64,000 nucleotides of DNA, taken from the NCBI RefSeq assembly GCF_988242995.1, contig NZ_OZ547043.1. One strand, written 5' to 3'. Numbering within the stretch: position 1 is the first letter of the stretch; each line of letters starts with the position of its first letter. Positions 880 to 37,534 of the stretch are shown in pieces. The translations under genes were made by a program, and so were the position numbers. Below the pieces are notes generated by a model. It did not search any database. It was not told the origin of the DNA and saw only the letters and a program-made list of their open reading frames with translations.

Positions 880-3800
880 ATGGACGTCAGTCGCAGACAA
901 TTTTTTAAAATCTGCGCGGGCGGTATGGCTGGAACAACGGTAGCGGCATTGGGCTTTGCCCCGAAGCAAGCACTGGCTCAGGCGCGAAACTATAAATTAT
1001 TACGCGCGAAAGAGATCCGTAACACCTGCACATACTGTTCCGTAGGTTGCGGGCTATTGATGTATAGCCTGGGTGATGGCGCGAAAAACGCCAGAGAAGC
1101 GATTTATCACATTGAAGGTGACCCGGATCATCCGGTAAGCCGTGGTGCGCTGTGCCCGAAAGGGGCCGGTTTGCTGGATTACGTCAACAGCGAAAACCGT
1201 CTGCGCTACCCGGAATATCGTGCGCCAGGTTCTGACAAATGGCAGCGCATTAGCTGGGATGAAGCATTCTCCCGTATTGCGAAGCTGATGAAAGCTGACC
1301 GTGACGCTAACTTTATTGAAAAGAACGAGCAGGGCGTAACGGTAAACCGTTGGCTTTCTACCGGTATGCTGTGTGCCTCCGGTGCCAGCAACGAAACCGG
1401 GATGCTGACTCAAAAATTTGCCCGCTCCCTCGGGATGCTGGCGGTAGACAACCAGGCGCGCGTCTGACACGGACCAACGGTAGCAAGTCTTGCTCCAACA
1501 TTTGGTCGCGGTGCGATGACCAACCACTGGGTGGATATCAAAAACGCTAACGTCGTAATGGTAATGGGCGGTAACGCTGCTGAAGCGCATCCCGTCGGTT
1601 TCCGCTGGGCGATGGAAGCGAAAAACAACAACGATGCAACCTTGATCGTTGTCGATCCCCGTTTTACGCGTACCGCTTCTGTAGCGGATATTTACGCACC
1701 TATTCGTTCCGGTACGGACATTACGTTCCTGTCTGGCGTTTTGCGCTACCTGATCGAAAACAACAAAATCAATGCCGAATACGTTAAGCATTACACCAAT
1801 GCCAGCCTGCTGGTGCGTGATGATTTTGCTTTCGAAGACGGTCTGTTCAGCGGCTACGACGCTGAAAAACGCCAGTACGATAAATCGTCCTGGAACTATC
1901 AGTTCGATGAAAACGGCTATGCGAAACGCGATGAAACACTGACTCATCCGCGCTGTGTGTGGAACTTGCTGAAAGAGCACGTTTCCCGCTACACGCCGGA
2001 CGTCGTTGAAAACATCTGCGGTACGCCAAAAGCAGACTTCCTGAAAGTGTGTGAAGTGCTGGCCTCCACCAGCGCGCCGGATCGCACAACCACCTTCCTG
2101 TACGCGCTGGGCTGGACGCAGCACACCGTGGGTGCGCAGAACATCCGCACCATGGCGATGATCCAATTGCTGCTCGGTAACATGGGTATGGCTGGTGGCG
2201 GCGTGAACGCATTGCGTGGTCACTCCAACATTCAGGGCCTGACCGACTTAGGTCTGCTCTCAACCAGCCTGCCGGGTTATCTGACGCTGCCGTCAGAAAA
2301 ACAGGTTGATTTGCAGTCGTATCTGGAAGCGAATACGCCGAAAGCGACGCTGGCTGATCAGGTGAACTACTGGAGCAACTATCCGAAGTTCTTCGTTAGC
2401 CTGATGAAATCTTTCTACGGTGATGCTGCACAGAAAGAGAACAACTGGGGCTATGACTGGCTGCCGAAGTGGGACCAGACCTACGACGTCATCAAGTATT
2501 TCAACATGATGGATGAAGGCAAAGTCACCGGTTATTTCTGCCAGGGCTTTAACCCGGTTGCGTCCTTCCCGGACAAAAACAAAGTGGTGAGCTGCCTGAG
2601 CAAGCTGAAGTACATGGTGGTTATCGATCCGCTGGTGACTGAAACCTCTACCTTCTGGCAGAACCACGGCGAGTCGAACGATGTCGATCCGGCGTCCATT
2701 CAGACTGAAGTATTCCGTCTGCCTTCGACCTGCTTTGCTGAAGAAGATGGTTCTATTGCTAACTCCGGTCGCTGGTTGCAGTGGCACTGGAAAGGTCAGG
2801 ACGCGCCGGGCGAAGCGCGTAACGACGGCGAAATTCTGGCGGGTATCTACCATCATCTGCGCGAGCTGTACCAGGCCGAAGGTGGTAAAGGCGTAGAACC
2901 GCTGATGAAGATGAGCTGGAACTACAAGCAGCCGCACGAACCGCAATCTGACGAAGTAGCTAAAGAGAACAACGGCTACGCGCTGGAAGATCTCTATGAT
3001 GCCAATGGCGTGCTGATTGCGAAGAAAGGTCAGTTGCTGAGTAGCTTTGCGCATCTGCGTGATGACGGTACAACCGCATCTTCTTGCTGGATCTACACCG
3101 GTAGCTGGACAGAGCAGGGCAACCAGATGGCTAACCGCGATAACTCCGACCCGTCCGGTCTGGGGAATACGCTGGGATGGGCCTGGGCGTGGCCGCTCAA
3201 CCGTCGCGTACTCTACAACCGTGCTTCGGCGGATATCAACGGTAAACCGTGGGATCCGAAACGGATGCTGATCCAGTGGAACGGCAGCAAGTGGACGGGT
3301 AACGATATTCCGGACTTCGGCAATGCCGCGCCAGGTACACCAACCGGACCGTTTATCATGCAGCCGGAAGGGATGGGACGCCTGTTTGCCATCAACAAAA
3401 TGGCGGAAGGTCCGTTCCCGGAACACTACGAGCCAATCGAAACGCCGCTGGGCACTAACCCGCTGCATCCGAACGTGGTGTCTAACCCGGTTGTTCGTCT
3501 GTATGAACAAGACGCGCTGCGGATGGGTAAAAAAGAGCAGTTCCCGTATGTGGGTACGACCTATCGTCTGACCGAGCACTTCCACACCTGGACCAAGCAC
3601 GCGTTGCTCAACGCAATTGCTCAGCCGGAACAGTTTGTGGAAATCAGCGAAACGCTGGCGGCGGCGAAAGGCATTAATAATGGCGATCGTGTCACTGTCT
3701 CAAGCAAGCGTGGCTTTATCCGCGCGGTGGCGGTGGTAACGCGCCGTCTGAAACCGCTGAATGTAAACGGTCAGCAGGTTGAAACGGTGGGTATTCCAAT

Positions 3801-3927
3801 CCACTGGGGCTTTGAGGGTGTCGCGCGTAAAGGTTATATCGCTAACACTCTGACGCCGAATGTCGGTGATGCAAACTCGCAAACGCCGGAATATAAAGCG
3901 TTCTTAGTCAACATCGAGAAGGCGTAA
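880..3927 (+). CDS. fdnG: Formate dehydrogenase-N alpha subunit (selenocysteine-containing molybdoenzyme); in-frame UGA at 1465-1467 read as Sec
   Basis: Track ORFs 880-1467 and 1516-3927 are in the same frame, separated only by TGA at 1465-1467. N-terminus has a twin-arginine motif (SRRQFFK). Total length 3048 nt equals 1015 codons plus stop, matching FdnG. Confidence 0.93.
1465..1510 (+). promoter_or_regulatory. Selenocysteine UGA codon plus putative downstream SECIS hairpin
   Basis: TGA at 1465-1467 followed by sequence with hairpin potential (agcaag-tc-cttgct core; ggacc/ggtc outer arms). Bacterial SECIS elements sit directly 3' of the UGA. Confidence 0.7.
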
Positions 3928-3939
3928 GGGGGCGAACAG

Positions 3940-4824
3940 ATGGCTATGGAAACGCAGGACATTATCAAAAGGTCCGCAACTAACTCCATCACGCCGCCTT
4001 CTCAGGTGCGTGATTACAAAGCAGAAGTCGCGAAACTTATCGACGTTTCCACCTGTATCGGCTGTAAAGCCTGTCAGGTGGCGTGTTCAGAGTGGAACGA
4101 CATCCGTGATGAAGTGGGGCACTGCGTCGGGGTTTACGATAACCCCGCCGATCTGAGCGCCAAGTCCTGGACGGTGATGCGCTTTAGCGAAACCGAACAG
4201 AACGGCAAGCTGGAGTGGCTGATCCGTAAAGACGGCTGTATGCACTGTGAAGATCCGGGCTGCCTGAAGGCGTGCCCGTCTGCTGGTGCAATCATTCAGT
4301 ACGCTAACGGGATTGTCGATTTCCAGTCGGAAAACTGCATCGGCTGTGGTTACTGCATTGCCGGGTGTCCGTTTAATATTCCGCGCCTCAACAAAGAGGA
4401 TAACCGGGTATATAAATGCACGCTCTGCGTCGATCGCGTCAGCGTCGGCCAGGAACCGGCTTGTGTGAAAACCTGTCCGACCGGGGCTATCCACTTCGGC
4501 ACCAAGAAGGAGATGCTGGAGCTGGCGGAACAGCGCGTGGCGAAACTGAAAGCGCGTGGTTACGAACATGCTGGCGTCTACAACCCGGAAGGGGTCGGTG
4601 GTACGCACGTTATGTACGTGCTGCATCACGCCGATCAGCCGGAGCTGTATCACGGTCTGCCGAAAGATCCGAAGATCGATACCTCGGTAAGCCTGTGGAA
4701 AGGCGCGTTGAAACCGCTGGCAGCGGCTGGCTTTATTGCCACTTTTGCCGGGTTGATTTTCCATTACATCGGTATTGGCCCGAATAAGGAAGTGGACGAT
4801 GACGAGGAGGATCATCATGAGTAA
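3940..4824 (+). CDS. fdnH: Formate dehydrogenase-N beta subunit (4Fe-4S ferredoxin-type, C-terminal membrane anchor)
   Basis: 294-aa ORF with several CxxCxxCxxxCP ferredoxin motifs; lies 12 nt after fdnG. Confidence 0.93.
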
Positions 4825-5470
4825 GTCGAAAATGATTGTGCGCACCAAATTTATTGATCGCGCCTGTCACTGGACCGTGGTGATTTGCTTCTTTCTGGTG
4901 GCGCTGTCCGGGATTTCGTTCTTCTTCCCGACGCTGCAATGGCTGACGCAAACCTTCGGTACGCCGCAGATGGGGCGCATTTTGCACCCGTTCTTCGGCA
5001 TTGCGATTTTCGTCGCGCTGATGTTTATGTTTGTGCGTTTTGTGCATCACAACATCCCGGATAAGAAAGATATTCCGTGGCTGTTGAACATTGTCGAAGT
5101 ATTAAAAGGCAATGAGCACAAAGTGGCGGATGTTGGTAAGTACAACGCCGGGCAAAAGATGATGTTCTGGTCGATCATGAGCATGATTTTCGTGCTGCTG
5201 GTGACCGGGGTGATTATCTGGCGTCCGTACTTTGCGCAGTACTTCCCGATGCAGGTTGTTCGCTACAGCCTGCTGATTCACGCGGCTGCGGGTATCATCC
5301 TGATCCACGCCATCCTGATCCATATGTATATGGCATTCTGGGTGAAAGGATCGATTAAAGGGATGATCGAAGGGAAGGTGAGCCGTCGCTGGGCGAAGAA
5401 ACACCATCCACGCTGGTATCGTGAAATCGAGAAGGCAGAAGCGAAAAAAGAGAGTGAAGAAGGGATATAA
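4817..5470 (+). CDS. fdnI: Formate dehydrogenase-N gamma subunit (cytochrome b556)
   Basis: Internal ATG of track ORF 4775-5470 ([12 protein letters not shown]...) gives 217 aa; start overlaps the fdnH stop by 8 nt; polytopic membrane protein with conserved His residues. Confidence 0.9.
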
Positions 5471-5490
5471 TCTCTTTTGAACTTTAAGCT

Positions 5491-5524
5491 GAAAATGGCG
5501 CTTTAAGAAGCGCCATTTTTTTTA
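5491..5524. terminator. Rho-independent, probably bidirectional terminator between fdnI and yddM
   Basis: Inverted repeat aaaatggcgc...gcgccatttt flanked by A-run and T-run (aaaatggcgctttaagaagcgccattttttttatt). Confidence 0.75.
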
Positions 5525-5806
5525 TTGCGTAACCAGACGGCGCAGTCGCGACACATCCACCGTTTTTTCTGCCTCTGCCAGACTCCAGGCGTTTTGCAGA
5601 TTCAGCCACATTTGCGGCGAACTGCCGATCACCACGGAAAGTTTAATCGCCATTTCTGGTGTCAAAGCTGCTTTTCCGGTCAGCAATCGGCTTGCCGTTG
5701 AGGGCGCAATTTCCATTGCTCTGGCAAACTCGCGCAGGCTGACATTAAGTTCGTCCAGTGATTCCTGAATAATGTCCCCCGGGCGGGGATGATTGGCCAT
5801 TTTCAT
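5522..5806 (-). CDS. yddM: HigA-like XRE-family helix-turn-helix protein (putative antitoxin or regulator)
   Basis: Track ORF 5522-5884; start placed at the internal Met ([20 protein letters not shown]...) to give 94 aa as recalled for YddM. Position between fdnI and adhP matches K-12 order. Confidence 0.75.
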
Positions 5807-31503: not shown

Positions 31504-33189
31504 TTATAAAACCGCGCTAATGTCACAAATATCATCGGCCAGGTTCCAGACACCGGGTTGATGTGTAACCATAATGACGCCGCTTGTGGGTAGTTTTTCA
31601 CGCACTAAACGCAGTAAGCGGATAGCCTCTTGTTCCTCAAGATGAGAGGTAGTTTCGTCAAGAAATATCCATTTCGGACGTCGTAAAATTAATCGTGCCA
31701 GGGCGATACGTTGTTTTTCGCCGCTGGAAAGAATATCTCCCCAGCGATCGTGGTCATGAATACGCGCAGCCAATTTCCCCAGACCAACCTGATGCAGTAT
31801 TTCGCTCAACGATTTATCGTCTACGGGCAGGGGAAGTGCTTTACAAATAATCTCTTTCAGTAAGCCGGTTTTGATTAACGGTGTTTGTGACACATACCAA
31901 CTGTCAGCAGGAGAAGAAATATCACCTTTGAACCACGGCCAGCAGTGGGATAATGTTTTAAGCAGTGTGGTTTTTCCCGCACCAGAGTAACCTTTCAGTA
32001 ATAGCCATTTGCCTGGCGAAACATGAAAGTTCAGGTTCTCTAATATGATCTTATTATCAGGAGTACGAATACTCGCGTCAGCCACTTGTACCGCATGTTG
32101 GCAATTTTTAGGCTTATTCGTAGGGCGCTGTTCGGTGAGTTGATGGAACTCATACAAACGATCGATAACCGCAGCCAGTTCAGCAAGTTCGTCATATTTA
32201 TAAATAAACCAGCTTAAATTGTTCGATACCAGCATAAATGCCTGGCGCGATTTCATCAGTCCGCCCAGATTGATCTGTCCGCTAATAAACTGTGGCAATA
32301 ACAGAAAGTAGGGAAGAACGCTAAGCGAGCGCGAATAAATATTCTGCCAGTAATCAAGCCAGCGCTGACGATTCATTAAACGATGCCAGTTCTCTTTAAT
32401 GGTATGAAAATTGTCGCTCAACTCCTGGCGTTGTAGAGACTCAGCATTGCTTAGCGCAATCAGTTCAGCCTGCTTATTATGCTGCACAAGATTAGTTCGA
32501 AATGTCGCTTCGCTACGTTGTTTTTCCACATTAAGCGGACGAATACGTTTACCCACCTTATGAGTAAATAAAGTTCCACCGATCACAATGAGCACGACGG
32601 TATAGACCATATACCCCTGGATATTCCATTCTGTTCCACCAACAGTGAATGAGAGCGTACCCGCGCTTTGCCAAAGAATAACGGTAAAGGTGATCAGCAT
32701 GCTAAGCGACTGGATGAAGCCAAATGAAAGGCTGAGCGTTTTACTGATCAGCAAGAGAATGTCCTCAGCGATACGTTGGTCAGGGTTATCTGTATTTTTA
32801 TGCTCGCCGTAGATTTGCGTGAAGTAGTAGTTTTTATCTGCAAACCAGCGATTAAGGTAGTAATCTGTTAACCATTCGCGCCAGCGAATAGTCAGTAGTT
32901 TAATTAACCATGTTTTGTTTACGGATATTAATACAAAGATCCCCAGCAGGGCAGGGAACCAAAGAACAAGCTGCCAAAGCTTATCGGTTTCTTTCTGGCT
33001 TAGCGCATTGAAAAAATCATTATTCCAGTCGTTTAACCAGACCTGAATTTTAACAACGCCAAGGATCATGGCGAGGATAATAATGATTAACAGCACTGAA
33101 GTTTTATTATTCTTACGCAGCCAAAAGGGCTTCAGCAGACAGAGATACTTTGCTATCAACATACAAAACGTAATGGGAATGGTTATCAT
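31504..33189 (-). CDS. yddA: ABC transporter, fused permease/ATPase
   Basis: 561 aa; N-terminal TM domain, C-terminal Walker A GYSGAGKTT and signature SSGEKQR. Confidence 0.88.
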   Translation of the reverse strand: MITIPITFCMLIAKYLCLLKPFWLRKNNKTSVLLIIIILAMILGVVKIQVWLNDWNNDFFNALSQKETDKLWQLVLWFPALLGIFVLISVNKTWLIKLLTIRWREWLTDYYLNRWFADKNYYFTQIYGEHKNTDNPDQRIAEDILLLISKTLSLSFGFIQSLSMLITFTVILWQSAGTLSFTVGGTEWNIQGYMVYTVVLIVIGGTLFTHKVGKRIRPLNVEKQRSEATFRTNLVQHNKQAELIALSNAESLQRQELSDNFHTIKENWHRLMNRQRWLDYWQNIYSRSLSVLPYFLLLPQFISGQINLGGLMKSRQAFMLVSNNLSWFIYKYDELAELAAVIDRLYEFHQLTEQRPTNKPKNCQHAVQVADASIRTPDNKIILENLNFHVSPGKWLLLKGYSGAGKTTLLKTLSHCWPWFKGDISSPADSWYVSQTPLIKTGLLKEIICKALPLPVDDKSLSEILHQVGLGKLAARIHDHDRWGDILSSGEKQRIALARLILRRPKWIFLDETTSHLEEQEAIRLLRLVREKLPTSGVIMVTHQPGVWNLADDICDISAVL

Positions 33190-33213
33190 TAGCGAAAATT
33201 GATTGTGCCATCC

Positions 33214-33237
33214 AATGATTATCTATGGCAATGATTT
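33214..33237 (-). promoter_or_regulatory. Putative Fur box upstream of yddA
   Basis: Plus-strand sequence aatgattatctatggcaatgattt; the minus strand contains GATAATCATT, matching the Fur consensus core, about 30-50 nt upstream of the yddA start. Confidence 0.45.
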
Positions 33238-33479
33238 ACTGATGAAATTTATTTAAGTATCATTTAACAATATGAAATATAAAGGAATATTTCATTTTCA
33301 GTGGTTATGGTTATGCTATTGATAATCAAGGATATTGCTAATGCCCTGACGCATACCACGTAAGCCAGGATTTTCGCAAGGGAAGATGATGATGACGAAA
33401 CACCCGACAGGAATATGTGTCAGGTGCATTGTTAAGGTCATAAGAAGGAGGCTAAGACTGGAGCTAAGAGGGAGCGTTA

Positions 33480-34637
33480 TTAATTATTCTCCATTTGTCT
33501 TGCAACATCCATGATGTGGTAAAGCGGTACTCTGTTCTTAGCTAACTCCACCATGGCGTTCATATAAGGCACCATGGTTGAAAAAAGGATTTTATAACCT
33601 TCACAAAAATAGGAAACAGTCTCATTGTTTACTTTAGTAATACGATGCTTAGGACAACCGCCATTGCAGATAGGTTTATATGCACATTGCTGACATTTCG
33701 CTGAAATCCGTTTTTTTTGCGCTGTCAGTTGTACACTGTTCATCGTTTTGAGTTCAGATTTATTAATGTTTCCAATTTTGTACTGTGGATAGACAAAATG
33801 GTCGCATTCGTAAATGTCTCCATTACTTTCAACAACCAGATTATCCTTGCAGGACTCCTGGAAAATACAACTGGTATGCCCATTCCCTAAAAAACGGCTG
33901 ACAAAGCTTTCAAACTGACGGATGAAAATTTCACCCACATCGTTTTTAACCCATTGCATAAAAATGGTTGACATAAACTTGCCATAAGCCGTGGGAGGCA
34001 CAGAAAAATCAATGATACGGAATGTGTTCTCACTATGACCACTGAAATCAATATTCGGCGTCCCGGTTTCTAGCAATTCGATAAATTGCATATGTTTACT
34101 GCCGATAGATTTTAAAAAATGATAAACCTCAAGAGGGTAATGGACATTAACGTTATTAATGACGGTTAACGTATTAAACTCAACTTGATATGATTTCAGA
34201 CGCTCGATGGCTGCTATCACTTTTGCAAAAGTACCGTTACCTGAATTACTGCGTCTGTAACGGTCATGTAGCTCCTGGGGGCCATCGATCGAGATACCAA
34301 CCAGAAACTCATGTTCTTTGATAAAAGCACACCATTCATTATTCAATAAAATGCCATTCGTTTGTAATGCATTAAAAATACGTTTTTGGCCTGCATAGCG
34401 TTGTTGATAGTGAATAACTTTACGGAAAAAATCCAGGCCAGCCAGAGTGGGTTCACCGCCTTGCCAGGTAAAATAGACCTGATTGCCAGACGCTGCGATA
34501 TATTGTTTGATGAACTCTTTCAGAGTACTGTCATCCATCCATTTTTCATGAGTAAACTGCGACTCTTTTTCAAGGTAAAAACAGTAATCACATTTGAGAT
34601 TACATTGAAAACTGGAGGGCTTGGCTGTAACGTGCAT
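33480..34637 (-). CDS. ydeM: Radical-SAM anaerobic sulfatase-maturating enzyme homologue
   Basis: CNLKCDYC (Cx3Cx2C) radical-SAM motif near the N-terminus plus extra Cys clusters (SPASM-like) near the C-terminus; start approximate. Confidence 0.85.
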
Positions 34638-34688
34638 CGCTATCTCGCTCAATAAGGCGGCGGAAAATTCCGCCGCATGAAGGTTTAG

Positions 34689-36371
34689 TTATTTCGCTTC
34701 GCTTAGTGCTTTCTTGATATTGTTAAACTTCTCCTGATTTACCTCGCTAAGCGGTGGCTGGCTGCTGTCGATAAACTCTCTTACCACGCCTTGCATCTCT
34801 TTAACGACCTGCGGATTGGCGGCGGCAAGGTTATCTTTTTGCTGTAGATCCGTCAGTTTGTAGAGACCTAACTGATTGTTTTCTACTGTATAGACAAGCG
34901 AATAATCGTTATTTCTCACCGTATAAGAGAATTGGCTTAAGTCCTCAGTGTTGGGGTTATGCGGGTAATCGTCTGACTGATGGCGAACAAATTTGTGGTA
35001 ATTATCCCAGAATGGAATATTTTCCTCGTCAAACCAGTGAGAATAAGAGGTTATCCAGGTCAGATTTTTATGTGGCTCGCCTTGTTTCTTATCTTGCAAC
35101 CAGGGCAGCAAGGAAACGCCATCCAGCTTAAGGTCTTTTGGAATGCTGATATCGGCTGCATCAAGAGCTGTCGGGTAGAAATCCATTGCGGAAATCAGCT
35201 TGTCATAATTACCGGGTTGAAGTTTTCCTTTCCACCACATAAACATTGGGGTGTGAGTACCGCCAGGATAGGTCTGACTCTTATAGCCTTTTTGCGCCCC
35301 GTTCAGCGGCAGAGGACCATCGATAACCGCACCATTATCGGAGGTAAAGAGAATAATTGTATTGTCATACTGTCCGTTTTTCTTCAGTTGTTCGAGAATG
35401 CGTTTTACACCCTGATCAACAGAATAAACGGAAGCGTAGTAGTTATCTGCTGTTTGACTACCGGTATTAAATTGCTTCTGATATTGCTCCGGTGCAGGAT
35501 TATCATTTGGCAGGTGCGGAGCATTATAAGCCAGGTAAAGCATAAAAGGCTGGTCAAGTGTTTTGGCACGATCAACAACGCCAATTGCCTCATCGGTTAA
35601 CTGATCGCTGATATAACCTTTTGCGGGGACGCGTTCACGGTTTTTGAACAGTGAAGGGGAGTTGTAATATGCCGTTCCTGCAGCGTGGAATCCCATAAAG
35701 TAATCAAAGCCACGGTTTTGAGGTTGCCATTCTTCCGCAGAAAATGTGGTGAAGTTGTCATGATAGTCACGCGTTTGTTTATCTTCCGGTACCGGCACAT
35801 TACTGATTTTTGACAAGTGCCATTTACCTACTGCTGCAGTGTAATAACCATGATTCTGGAATAATTCAGGCAAGAAAGTTTCTGTTAGCGGAATACCATC
35901 CTGAGCATCGGTATTGGAATAGACACCAAAGCGGGCGGGCGCTCGACCGGTCATTATTGCGGCGCGGGAGGGGCCGGAAACACCGTGCGCCACATAGCCG
36001 TTAGTAAAACGTACGCCTTCATCCATTAATGAAAGGAGCGTCGGCGTTGATTTTTGCGCAGCTTCAATGGCTTTATCTATCCCTATTTTGTAGGTATCGA
36101 CAACTTCACGATTTTCCATTGTTTTTGGGTCAAAAGATCCCTTATCAAAAGGAAGTTGTCCATAACCAAGATCATCCATGGTCAGTACGATAATATTTGG
36201 CTTTCCTTTGGTACTGTATTCAGTCGGCGTAAAGTCTGAGAAAGCAACGTTTGTTTTGGTTGCTTTCAGCTTTACATCATCTGCCGCATGAGCAGCAAAT
36301 GCAGCCATACCAGATGCCAGTATCAAAGATATCGAGGTACTTACGACACTTTTCTTTAATGCAGACTTCAT
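34689..36371 (-). CDS. ydeN: Periplasmic sulfatase (type I sulfatase family)
   Basis: Track ORF 34689-36551 with start at MKSALKKSVVSTSISLILASGMAAFAAHA (signal peptide), 560 aa; sulfatase active-site region and DDLGYGQ metal-binding region. Confidence 0.85.
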   Translation of the reverse strand: MKSALKKSVVSTSISLILASGMAAFAAHAADDVKLKATKTNVAFSDFTPTEYSTKGKPNIIVLTMDDLGYGQLPFDKGSFDPKTMENREVVDTYKIGIDKAIEAAQKSTPTLLSLMDEGVRFTNGYVAHGVSGPSRAAIMTGRAPARFGVYSNTDAQDGIPLTETFLPELFQNHGYYTAAVGKWHLSKISNVPVPEDKQTRDYHDNFTTFSAEEWQPQNRGFDYFMGFHAAGTAYYNSPSLFKNRERVPAKGYISDQLTDEAIGVVDRAKTLDQPFMLYLAYNAPHLPNDNPAPEQYQKQFNTGSQTADNYYASVYSVDQGVKRILEQLKKNGQYDNTIILFTSDNGAVIDGPLPLNGAQKGYKSQTYPGGTHTPMFMWWKGKLQPGNYDKLISAMDFYPTALDAADISIPKDLKLDGVSLLPWLQDKKQGEPHKNLTWITSYSHWFDEENIPFWDNYHKFVRHQSDDYPHNPNTEDLSQFSYTVRNNDYSLVYTVENNQLGLYKLTDLQQKDNLAAANPQVVKEMQGVVREFIDSSQPPLSEVNQEKFNNIKKALSEAK

Positions 36372-36772
36372 AAATGTTCCTCTTCTTATTGTACTTAATT
36401 CCAAAGTAATTTTACGAAGAGAAATAAGTGGATGTAAGTGAAGTGAGTCACATAAAGAGATAGCAGATTTAGCTAAAAAAAGGGAAATAACAGTCCATAA
36501 AGCGTTGACATTACTTTCTGTTCTACTAAGTAATTTCTCGCCGATAAACAACTAATCTATTGATATTTAATAAATTATTGCATTTTAATGACAAAATGCC
36601 GAATTGAGATCATAAATAATCATGCAACAGGTTATGCAAATGCATAAATATGTGATGAATGTCACTTATTTATTTCAAGAAATATATCGCCTAAAAACAA
36701 CGCGGGGCAGGAAATGGCTGCCCCATTTAATTCTTACGTAGCGTGTGTGGTTGACTACTCGTTAGCAAATAA

Positions 36773-37534
36773 TCAAATAGCTAAAGCACTCATCGTGTTG
36801 TCCGTGTTCATACCGGTGTGCCTTTGACAACGGTACTCCTTCGAAACTCTCTTCGGACTGTTGCCGAAATGTTTGCGGAACGCATAAATAAAATATGATG
36901 TACTCGCATAACCACATTGTTCGGCAATTTTATTGACTGAACCTTCTACGCGTATCAAATTTTTTGCGTGCTGCATTCTGGCATCTAAAAGAATCTGTGA
37001 GAATGTCGTTTGCTCTTGCTTTAGTTTTTTCTTCAACAGGCTTTCACTGATGTACAGGCAGTCACAAATATCTTTCAGCTTCCATGGGTGCGCCAGCTTC
37101 ATGTTGACAATATTTCTCACTTTCCCGGAAACGGATAGCACACCGTTAGTTAATAGTGTAATGAAACCTTTGCATGCGGCAAAAATAGACAGGCAAGAAA
37201 AAAGCAAAAGTTCTGAAAAGTTATGATGATTGCGTTCTTCCGAGTTGAGATAAGCAATCATTTCATTAAGCAATCCCGTCGGTACATTTGAAGCACGTAA
37301 AAACTTCGCAGGAACAGGCACCGTCACTGTCTGGATGTTAGTGCATTGTAGATATTTTTTAATGGTGTTTTCATTAAATCCGATTTCTTTGAAATGCCGC
37401 TCATAAGGTTCAAAATGCGTACGAACAGCGTTATCTACCATCAGGATCTCGCCGTCAGAGAAGGCGTAATCTTTATCTAAAATGTTAGCGTTGAAGGCAT
37501 GATGAATAAATATAACAGAACAAACGAGCGACAT
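36773..37534 (-). CDS. ydeO: AraC-family transcriptional activator of acid resistance
   Basis: 253 aa with C-terminal AraC HTH; downstream of safA in the same orientation. Confidence 0.88.
   Translation of the reverse strand: MSLVCSVIFIHHAFNANILDKDYAFSDGEILMVDNAVRTHFEPYERHFKEIGFNENTIKKYLQCTNIQTVTVPVPAKFLRASNVPTGLLNEMIAYLNSEERNHHNFSELLLFSCLSIFAACKGFITLLTNGVLSVSGKVRNIVNMKLAHPWKLKDICDCLYISESLLKKKLKQEQTTFSQILLDARMQHAKNLIRVEGSVNKIAEQCGYASTSYFIYAFRKHFGNSPKRVSKEYRCQRHTGMNTDNTMSALAI

Follow-up and report, generated by a model that had tools for sequence, protein, structure and literature searches.

Which substrate does a sulfatase act on in Escherichia coli when its gene lies beside that of a radical-SAM enzyme, and is the neighboring enzyme its maturase? 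These questions are raised by the ydeN-ydeM pair within a 64,000-nucleotide stretch of contig NZ_OZ547043.1 (NCBI RefSeq assembly GCF_988242995.1; hereafter, the window), in a genomic setting that corresponds to the E. coli pqqL-yddBA-ydeMN-ydeO-safA-ydeP region. An original prediction made from the sequence alone had named these genes and placed them at 33480-36371, and both the identity and the coordinates, which are exact to the base for each gene, are borne out:

33480..34637, minus strand: ydeM coding sequence, 385 aa, encoding a radical-SAM/SPASM anSME homologue (Pfam, TIGR03942, match to 4K36)
34689..36371, minus strand: ydeN coding sequence, 560 aa, encoding a predicted Sec-exported, Ser-type S1 formylglycine-dependent sulfatase (Pfam, motif, orthologue alignment, AF2, Foldseek)

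The proteins are near-identical to those of K-12, with three residue differences in YdeM and one in YdeN, and the RefSeq labels on the same stretch agree ('anaerobic sulfatase maturase' for ydeM and 'sulfatase-like hydrolase/transferase' for ydeN). The program-made ydeM reading frame extends to a TTG at 34652; all orthologues begin at the ATG (MHxTAKP). The two genes form an annotated, known E. coli pair and no discovery. Both are intact and conserved, with nothing out of the ordinary, and annotation or publication already covers the pair, its motifs, and its CRP and AraC regulators. E. coli has few sulfatases, and the substrate of YdeN would tell whether sulfated glycans of the host or the diet are exploited by enterobacteria, commensal and pathogenic alike. 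What is gained here is a sharper substrate hypothesis that can be tested and the strict linkage of the pair as a Ser-type cassette, and no more.

YdeN matches the entire Pfam Sulfatase profile (PF00884, E 1.3e-70, profile positions 1-301 of 301). Two segments of the gene bear on its maturation and export:

35943..35978, minus strand: formylglycine maturation motif S132-G-P-S-R-A-A-I-M-T-G-R of YdeN, in which Ser132 is the residue to be oxidized
36285..36371, minus strand: signal-peptide part of ydeN, residues 1-29 (MKSALKK...AAFAAHA, then ADD), read from sequence

The original prediction had singled out a Cys/Ser-x-P-x-R motif in the sulfatase and SPASM Cys clusters in the maturase as the features to check, and both are present. 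YdeN carries S-G-P-S-R-x4-T-G-R, which a motif scan returned as its sole C/S-x-P/A-x-R match, and residues S132, G133, P134, S135, R136, and A137 are invariant across 14 aligned orthologues. Because Ser132 occupies the motif and the Cys count of the entire protein is zero, YdeN is, as read from its sequence, specifically a Ser-type S1 sulfatase. Ser-type sulfatases depend on an anSME for formylglycine formation, and YdeN would therefore be anSME-dependent. The YdeN clade is entirely Ser-type, in contrast to its 29 nearest out-clade relatives, of which 25 are Cys-type. The residues for catalysis and metal binding are all kept (DD...R...K-x-H...H...D-N/H...K pattern): an alignment of 41 sequences, down to 27% identity, shows no variation at D66, D67, R136, H185, H286, D345, or K364 and at least 90% conservation of K183 and N346. 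The signal peptide is assigned to the Sec type because it lacks a twin-arginine, and signal-like N-terminal segments occur in all full-length YdeN orthologues. The AF2 model (pLDDT 91.5) shows a helix of low confidence over residues 7-28 and a folded domain from about residue 56 onward. A Foldseek search with this model returned 411 PDB matches at E<=0.001, and the best ones listed are S1 sulfatases. Our literature search returned no report of formylglycine at the YdeN motif or of sulfate-ester hydrolysis by YdeN, and both YdeN and YdeM are still termed 'putative' (PMC8379841, PMC10878103).

The partner protein contains Pfam Radical_SAM (4e-22) and SPASM (3.5e-6) domains, with the cluster-binding residues encoded as follows:

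34581..34604, minus strand: radical-SAM motif C12-x3-C16-x2-C19 of YdeM, invariant in 13 orthologues
33603..33869, minus strand: SPASM region of YdeM, with C257, C263, C278 (then D279), C315-x2-C318-x5-C324-x3-C328, and C345 as eight auxiliary [4Fe-4S] ligands

YdeM scores 503.7 bits against the anaerobic sulfatase maturase model TIGR03942 (cut-off 349.45; profile positions 1-362 of 363), and its residues 4-358 align to anSMEcpe (4K36) with an E value of 1.2e-62. The CX3CX2C motif and all of the auxiliary Cys are present in this alignment; the eight auxiliary Cys and D279, likewise invariant in 13 orthologues, align with Cys and Asp residues of 4K36 that we take to be C255, C261, C276, C317, C320, C326, C330, and C348, and the catalytic Asp D277. 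The TIGR03942 score above cut-off and the complete Cys clusters support the original reading of the adjacent radical-SAM enzyme as the expected anaerobic maturase. From this we infer that YdeM matures YdeN, a role held at that strength because YdeM is called a 'putative' anSME in the literature, with no biochemical test reported (PMC8379841).

The arrangement of orthologous loci ties the two proteins together. In 15 of the 16 YdeN-orthologue loci, which come from Escherichia and ten other genera, the gene directly downstream, on the same strand, encodes a YdeM homologue, and the linked genes (Enterobacterales, Aeromonas, Vibrionaceae, Psychromonas, Anaerobiospirillum, and Fusobacterium) are spaced 28-519 nt apart. 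Since the downstream homologue recurs in this way, the adjacency is not chance, and distant gut bacteria keep the pair together as a strictly linked Ser-type cassette. Within 8 kb of the 16 orthologous loci, the maturase is the only shared neighbor; no transporter or glycoside hydrolase accompanies the pair, and the context thus gives no direct substrate clue. A ThiI gene common to two of the loci is a housekeeping coincidence. The genes yddA, yddB, and pqqL were set aside as functional partners, as they are not conserved beside the pair in other genera. Beside a 565-aa E. coli paralogue, no maturase remnant was found, even at E<=10.

These data also bear on two readings in which the pair would not be a working sulfatase and its maturase. 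It is highly improbable that the adjacency is incidental and that YdeM, unrelated to YdeN, serves as a radical-SAM/SPASM maturase of the peptide-modifying (RiPP) kind. SPASM enzymes are functionally diverse and YdeM also matches DynA, DarE, YhhB, and other peptide maturase models, but these matches fall far under their cut-offs (218.6 vs 450 for DynA) whereas TIGR03942 is exceeded, the linkage persists in distant taxa where no other neighbor is conserved and no precursor-peptide gene is evident, and the Ser-type partner needs an anSME. There is just as little to recommend a cryptic, decaying remnant without function in present-day E. coli. Purifying selection acts on both genes (dN/dS 0.014-0.07), the catalytic and cluster residues are all intact, 5322 of 5426 complete E. 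coli genomes have the region over at least 80% of its length, and both transcript and protein have been detected; this outweighs the lack of a published phenotype or activity and occasional disruptions, one being the IS2 insertion that strain Ch1 carries in ydeM.

With the genes shown to be intact, every motif in place, and the strict linkage, the purifying selection, and the fold directly established, we consider it very likely that ydeN-ydeM is a self-contained two-gene module of a Ser-type S1 sulfatase and its own anSME. YdeN would be made as a Sec pre-protein with its catalytic residue encoded as Ser132. YdeM, a predicted cytoplasmic radical-SAM enzyme with three [4Fe-4S] clusters, would recognize S-x-P-x-R on the unfolded YdeN chain and convert Ser132 to C-alpha-formylglycine in a reaction that does not need oxygen. 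YdeN would next be exported and fold in the periplasm, where hydrated formylglycine and a divalent metal (D66, D67, D345, N346) would cleave the sulfate ester. A single promoter upstream of ydeN would drive both genes, with cAMP-CRP binding and AraC with arabinose repressing, and a hairpin in the spacer would probably hold maturase expression under sulfatase expression.

Characterized systems provide precedents for parts of this mechanism. Like YdeN-YdeM, Klebsiella pneumoniae AtsA/AtsB consists of a Ser-type, Sec-exported periplasmic S1 sulfatase encoded beside an anSME; AtsB is a three-cluster anSME that converts Ser to formylglycine in the cytoplasm prior to AtsA export. The gene order is reversed relative to ydeN-ydeM (atsB before atsA), regulation is by sulfur and tyramine, and unlike the arylsulfatase AtsA, YdeN has carbohydrate sulfatases as its nearest solved relatives. 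Clostridium perfringens anSMEcpe (PDB 4K36-4K39) shares with YdeM the CX3CX2C motif, eight auxiliary Cys, QGGEPT, and the C-D catalytic Asp. anSMEcpe accepts Cys-type and Ser-type substrates, whereas the only linked substrate predicted for YdeM is Ser-type. The same E. coli genome holds a second adjacent sulfatase and radical-SAM pair, AslA/AslB, at a different locus outside the window, and an aslB/ydeM deletion study was reportedly carried out by Benjdia in 2007. AslB, like YdeM, is described as a putative anSME (PMC8379841), and its overexpression increased recombinant human sulfatase activity (PMC11215262).

Coordinated expression of the pair is supported by published work, in which ydeN and ydeM are co-transcribed and ydeN is a direct AraC target whose expression is raised by deletion of araC (PMC10878103). 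AraC binding upstream of ydeN requires arabinose (PMC3738151), and AraC with arabinose represses ydeN. Five elements lie in the spacer and upstream of ydeN:

34657..34676, minus strand: intercistronic GC-rich hairpin GCGGCGGA-AUUU-UCCGCCGC in the 51-nt ydeN-ydeM spacer (MFE -20.3 kcal/mol, z-score -2.2)
36409..36438, minus strand: promoter-like element CTTACA-18-TAAAAT, about 30 nt upstream of the ydeN start codon, from a consensus scan only
36437..36452, minus strand: proximal CRP-like site TGTGACTCACTTCACT, one mismatch to TGTGAN6TCACA
36651..36666, plus strand: distal CRP site TGTGATGAATGTCACT, from a consensus match and the literature
36703..36725, minus strand: intrinsic terminator of the upstream gene ydeO, an 8-pair stem with 6 GC pairs and a T-rich tail

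The promoter and terminator scan gave counts no higher than in shuffled sequence and therefore serves as a pointer only; the promoter-like element falls in a block conserved in E. albertii, and the ydeO terminator stands between ydeO and the ydeN promoter region. The proximal CRP-like site is conserved in K-12, Escherichia sp., and E. albertii and may well be functional; with its center about 42 nt ahead of the transcription start, which is predicted near 36402, it has class II geometry. A CRP ChIP-seq peak assigned to ydeN has as its motif the K-12/ETEC equivalent of the distal site, TGTGATGGATGTCACT (PMC4287617), and ydeN is among the CRP genomic-SELEX targets (PMC3105977). Scanning for the AraC half-site (TAGCN7TCCATA, at most 2 mismatches) gave 40 matches vs 50.5 expected, none of them upstream of ydeN, and the published AraC site at ydeN is not locatable by consensus. 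An FNR consensus scan found no site near or upstream of ydeN, so the sequence gives no support for FNR-driven anaerobic induction. The Rfam scan of 33000-37000 returned just one chance miRNA match (E 0.79), and hence no known riboswitch or sRNA in that interval. Literature data report ydeN down 32-40-fold at pH 4.4, alongside mal, xyl, and tre genes, and YdeN protein in anaerobic rumen fluid.

Between the two genes, hairpins of unrelated sequence (-18 to -25 kcal/mol) occupy the same place in Yersinia, Aeromonas, Leminorella, Citrobacter, Cedecea, Mixta, and E. albertii; comparable spacer hairpins occur in Grimontia and Psychromonas, and none in Fusobacterium. In E. coli the U-tract of the hairpin (CUUAUUGAG) is poor, and the scan did not class this hairpin as a terminator. 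To judge by these sequences it is probably a partial terminator or an mRNA stabilizer, and we infer that it lowers ydeM relative to ydeN expression.

The substrate of YdeN is the less settled half of the question. The original prediction held that it is not established, in agreement with a 2024 paper, as of which no YdeN substrate had been reported (PMC10878103). YdeN reaches no NCBIfam sulfatase equivalog cut-off (123.8 bits against the arylsulfatase equivalog NF010322, cut-off 481), and its specificity is therefore not transferable by homology. Its top sequence matches among structures are S1_19 carrageenan Gal-4S sulfatases (E 3e-52 to 3e-50), and its top fold matches (Foldseek with the AF2 model) are S1_19 (E 1e-34, TM 0.80 on target) and S1_16 sulfatases, whereas steryl-sulfatase and arylsulfatase A rank far lower (1e-25 to 1e-28 vs 3e-52). 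The S1_19 carrageenan 4-O-sulfatases (ZgCgsA 9HH2; Pseudoalteromonas 6B0J, 6BIA, and 6PSM) have a catalytic core in common with YdeN, at 25-28% identity over the structural alignment. Against about 450-480 aa in these enzymes, YdeN runs to 560 aa: an insertion of about 27 residues follows the first strand, and the C-terminus is longer. YdeN is also Ser-type, and its source is gut bacteria without carrageenan utilization loci. The extra segment (residues 82-108) lies near the active-site face and is also found in relatives at 30-45% identity, which may form a separate subfamily. Gut Bacteroides and Akkermansia S1 sulfatases, such as the S1_16 enzymes BT3796/BT3057 with 4S-Gal/GalNAc specificity (bioRxiv 10.1101/2025.09.11.675649), resemble YdeN in being periplasmic gut enzymes that require an anSME. 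Those bacteria have many sulfatases in polysaccharide utilization loci and one unlinked maturase, whereas ydeN is a single sulfatase gene with its own maturase and without glycan-degrading genes.

Most likely, YdeN acts on a small sulfated carbohydrate that reaches the periplasm. A galacto-configured 4-O-sulfate (Gal-4S or GalNAc-4S), which other gut microbes would free from glycans of the host or the diet, is a weak guess, made because the nearest structures are S1_19 and S1_16 and because the closest out-clade relative, from Plesiomonas (43% identity), lies in a GalNAc-catabolism cluster. That gene stands between an anSME gene and a DUF2264 gene, and the cluster also has a KdgM porin, a second sulfatase, and GalNAc/tagatose-pathway genes. 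The gut S1_19 enzyme Amuc_1182 was inactive on the substrates tested, 4S-Gal and 4S-GalNAc included. Extending this guess, we hypothesize, as a long shot, that YdeN-YdeM is a horizontally mobile, self-sufficient two-gene cassette providing a periplasmic exo-sulfatase for 4-O-sulfated Gal/GalNAc. Its hosts, facultative gut bacteria that themselves lack the machinery to degrade glycans (E. coli, Yersinia, Salmonella, Proteus, Aeromonas, Fusobacterium), would cross-feed on sulfated sugars freed by primary degraders from chondroitin sulfate, mucin, or dietary carrageenan, with the cassette on by cAMP-CRP and off with arabinose.

Two other kinds of substrate have to be weighed against a sulfated sugar. 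About as tentative as the exo-sulfatase cassette is a non-carbohydrate sulfate ester that the host supplies in its gut or urinary tract, for example a sulfated steroid or bile acid, a phenolic or indoxyl sulfate, or a peptide with tyrosine-O-sulfate. Most of the carrier genera are associated with animals (Escherichia, Yersinia, Salmonella, Proteus, Aeromonas, Anaerobiospirillum, Fusobacterium), the very high conservation (70% identity between E. coli and Anaerobiospirillum) suggests a single fixed small substrate, and ydeM transposon mutants are depleted in mouse cystitis (PMC8767336). The lack of linked glycan-processing genes would suit such an ester, but the top sequence and fold matches are all carbohydrate sulfatases, far ahead of steryl-sulfatase and arylsulfatase A, and control by CRP and AraC indicates a sugar hierarchy. 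Less probable still is a sulfur-scavenging arylsulfatase like Klebsiella AtsA, which would obtain sulfate from aromatic or small esters at sulfur scarcity instead of serving carbon catabolism. The matching AtsA/AtsB architecture speaks for it, the absence of linked catabolic genes and transporters fits sulfate as the sole useful product, and ydeN was the one gene that a sulfonated azo dye induced (PMC10653809). Against it stand the carbohydrate sulfatases as nearest solved relatives, the low NF010322 score, and the carbon-source logic of CRP and AraC regulation, with ydeN co-regulated with mal, xyl, and tre.

The ydeN–ydeM pair, its annotation and its regulation by CRP and AraC are already present in databases and papers. 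Our analysis adds an explicit Ser-type assignment for the entire YdeN clade, strict linkage of the pair in distant gut bacteria, a structurally conserved intercistronic hairpin, and a testable substrate class. The original prediction placed the pair at 33480–36371, an exact fit to two minus-strand ORFs within the following arrangement:

34689–36371, minus strand: ydeN, 560-aa ORF
34657–34676: 8-bp GC hairpin in the 51-nt ydeN–ydeM spacer, from predicted folding
33480–34637, minus strand: ydeM, 385-aa ORF with an ATG start
33392–33514, plus strand: small ORF yneP (40 aa in K-12), converging on ydeM and overlapping its 3' end

The mechanically called ydeM ORF reaches a TTG at 34652, and orthologues all begin MHxTAKP at ATG. 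The window is E. coli chromosome, with 33300–36800 matched by 5390 of 5426 complete E. coli genomes (5322 of them over at least 80% of its length), and the RefSeq annotation of both the best-matching genome and K-12 MG1655 gives the gene order pqqL-yddB-yddA-(yneP)-ydeM-ydeN-ydeO-safA-ydeP. Relative to K-12 there is one substitution in YdeN and three in YdeM. Comparisons with K-12, an Escherichia sp. and E. albertii give dN/dS values of 0.014–0.046 for ydeN and 0.042–0.070 for ydeM, indicating strong purifying selection on both. Identity to 33300–36800 reaches 99% in only 12 of 5394 E. coli records (strain TUM1886 is the best match, and most fall at 95–99%), placing the window in an E. coli lineage that has been sampled rather sparsely. 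In strain Ch1 (NZ_CP127316.1), an IS2 element inside ydeM leaves two annotated fragments beside an intact ydeN, making this strain a natural maturase knock-out. The yneP product encoded in the window carries several differences from its K-12 counterpart, and its ORF can be extended upstream by two Met codons.

Judged by sequence, every defining feature of an S1 sulfatase that was tested is found in YdeN. The protein matches the Pfam Sulfatase family end to end (E 1.3e-70), and its sole C/S-x-P/A-x-R match is S132-G-P-S-R, which extends to the complete twelve-residue signature SGPSRAAIMTGR. With no cysteine in YdeN, Ser132 is the only possible formylglycine precursor, making this a Ser-type sulfatase. 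The maturation motif is invariant in 14 orthologues with identities down to 54%, and the metal-binding and catalytic residues D66, D67, R136, K183, H185, H286, D345, N346, and K364 show little or no variation across 41 aligned sequences with identities as low as 27%. A Sec-type signal peptide is predicted at the N-terminus, which runs from MKSALKK through a hydrophobic core to AHA|ADD and has no twin arginine. An AlphaFold2 model has a mean pLDDT of 91.5, with low confidence limited to residues 1–55.

The partner enzyme likewise carries each anSME feature tested, and appears to be a maturase of the anSMEcpe type. YdeM has Pfam Radical_SAM and SPASM domains, scores 503.7 bits on the anaerobic sulfatase maturase model TIGR03942 (cut-off 349.45), and aligns over residues 4–358 with the solved anSMEcpe structure (4K36, E 1.2e-62). 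C12, C16, and C19 form the CX3CX2C motif, C257, C263, C278, C315, C318, C324, C328, and C345 match the auxiliary-cluster cysteines of 4K36, and D279, directly after C278, is the counterpart of its catalytic Asp; none of these residues varies among 13 orthologues. Thus the sulfatase motif and the SPASM cysteines on which the original prediction hinged are both in place. A role as peptide maturase is very unlikely, as every NCBIfam peptide-maturase model scored far below its own cut-off. The pair follows the same functional logic as Klebsiella AtsA/AtsB, a Ser-type periplasmic sulfatase with an adjacent anSME, although YdeN for its part is nearest to carbohydrate sulfatases.

Orthologues of YdeN with 54–84% identity occur in Yersinia, Salmonella, Citrobacter, Leminorella, Cedecea, Mixta, Proteus, Aeromonas, Shewanella, Iodobacter, Grimontia, Psychromonas, Anaerobiospirillum, and Fusobacterium. 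At 15 of 16 loci from Escherichia and ten other genera, a count that includes every analyzed locus with sufficient flank, a YdeM homologue lies 28–519 nt downstream on the same strand (46–87% identical once E. coli and its nearest relatives are set aside). When ORFs within 8 kb were clustered all against all at the loci analyzed, the maturase was the only conserved neighbor; no transporter, glycoside hydrolase, or regulator was shared, and therefore the unit of inheritance is the two genes alone, a strictly linked cassette. The YdeN clade is Ser-type throughout, and its nearest out-clade representatives (27–45% identity) are Cys-type in 25 of 29 cases. To our knowledge, Ser-type sulfatases are matured only by anSMEs, which is why YdeN always travels with its own maturase.

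The spacer hairpin (−20.3 kcal/mol for a 76-nt context, z-score −2.2) has counterparts of −18 to −25 kcal/mol at the same position in E. albertii, Yersinia, Aeromonas, Leminorella, Citrobacter, Cedecea, and Mixta, and comparable spacer hairpins occur in Grimontia and Psychromonas (loci L003, L005, L010–L015, L018, and L019 of the YdeN relatives). The sequences are unrelated between genera, position and stability are kept, and T-rich tails often follow. No hairpin was found in the 28–34-nt sulfatase–maturase spacers of Fusobacterium, and the ydeN–ydeM region has no Rfam family match. The element resembles a conserved partial terminator, or else an mRNA 3'-end stabilizer, within the operon, and could keep the catalytic maturase less abundant than the sulfatase on which it acts.

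Upstream of ydeN, the regulatory features are:

36703–36725: clear ydeO terminator, from a terminator scan
36651–36666: distal CRP site, matching the motif beneath a CRP ChIP-seq peak in the literature
36437–36452: proximal CRP-like site, a consensus match overlapping the −35 element
36438–36409: promoter-like CTTACA-18-TAAAAT, downstream of the ydeO terminator

These CRP sites, both in the ~400-bp ydeO–ydeN intergenic region, are the only matches to the consensus with at most one mismatch in the 64-kb window. The ChIP-seq peak was assigned to ydeN in ETEC (PMC4287617), and ydeN is a CRP genomic-SELEX target (PMC3105977). We found no literature description of the proximal site, which has its center ~42 nt before the inferred transcription start (class II geometry), lies within a stretch whose conservation extends to E. 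albertii and, we infer, is probably functional. ydeN is also a direct AraC target, with ydeMN overexpressed in a ΔaraC strain (PMC10878103), and AraC occupancy of the region requires arabinose (PMC3738151). At pH 4.4, ydeN falls 32–40-fold together with malE, malM, xylF, and treC (PMC10746267). The YdeN protein has been observed in O157 cultured under anaerobic conditions in rumen fluid (PMC3936929), and a consensus scan found no FNR-like site upstream of ydeN.

The original prediction correctly described the substrate as not established, in line with the absence of any reported substrate as of 2024 (PMC10878103), and no NCBIfam equivalog matches YdeN at its own cut-off. Sequence and fold searches agree on the nearest solved relatives: S1_19 carrageenan sulfatases lead by sequence (E 3e-52 to 3e-50), followed by an exo-4S κ-carrageenan sulfatase (1e-42) and an S1_16 enzyme (5e-39), and the same S1_19 entries lead by fold (E 1e-34, TM 0.80 on target), with S1_16 entries next. 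S1_19 enzymes remove the galactose 4-sulfate of carrageenan (PMC5066984), and gut-bacterial S1_16 enzymes act on 4S-Gal and 4S-GalNAc (bioRxiv 10.1101/2025.09.11.675649). The closest out-clade relative, a Plesiomonas shigelloides protein with 43% identity, has an anSME gene on one side and a DUF2264 gene on the other. The surrounding cluster (L026, 3115–13348) encodes a DeoR regulator, GatZ/KbaZ, SIS, a sorbose-type PTS, two Cys-type sulfatases, a KdgM-type porin, the anSME, the DUF2264 protein, tagatose-bisphosphate aldolase, and a PfkB kinase. The GatZ/KbaZ, SIS, aldolase, PfkB, and PTS genes constitute a GalNAc/galactosamine pathway, making this a candidate cluster for utilization of sulfated GalNAc or chondroitin fragments. 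Together, these relatives and the Plesiomonas cluster weakly suggest galacto-configured 4-O-sulfated sugars as the YdeN substrate class, an assignment we regard as possible but rather doubtful. Identity to the S1_19 structures is just 25–28% over the structural alignment, residues 82–108 (~27 extra) are shared by YdeN and its 30–45% relatives and absent from those structures, and Amuc_1182, an S1_19 enzyme from the gut, showed no activity on the standard sulfated sugars assayed (bioRxiv 10.1101/2025.09.11.675649).

A second Ser-type YdeN paralogue of 565 aa, with 77% identity, is present in some E. coli strains (cluster P0066, 303 member sequences; 3847–5544 and 2729–4426 on E. coli contigs L007 and L008). 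It is followed by short ORFs and an IS110 transposase, with no maturase or remnant there, and would thus have to depend on ydeM in trans. The gene directly upstream of this paralogue encodes a general porin, and a homologue of that porin closely precedes the Aeromonas sulfatase–maturase pair (L005). In E. albertii NBRC 107761, synonymous divergence of both genes from E. coli is saturated (dS 1.4–1.7), and the sequence beyond about −200 is unrelated and lacks the ydeO terminator, which suggests another genomic setting or a separate acquisition. Finally, a 13-kb contig of a ‘Candidatus Nanosynbacter’ MAG (JARKOR010000108.1), with ydeN and ydeM 99–100% identical to E. coli, is almost certainly a mis-binned E. 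coli contig.
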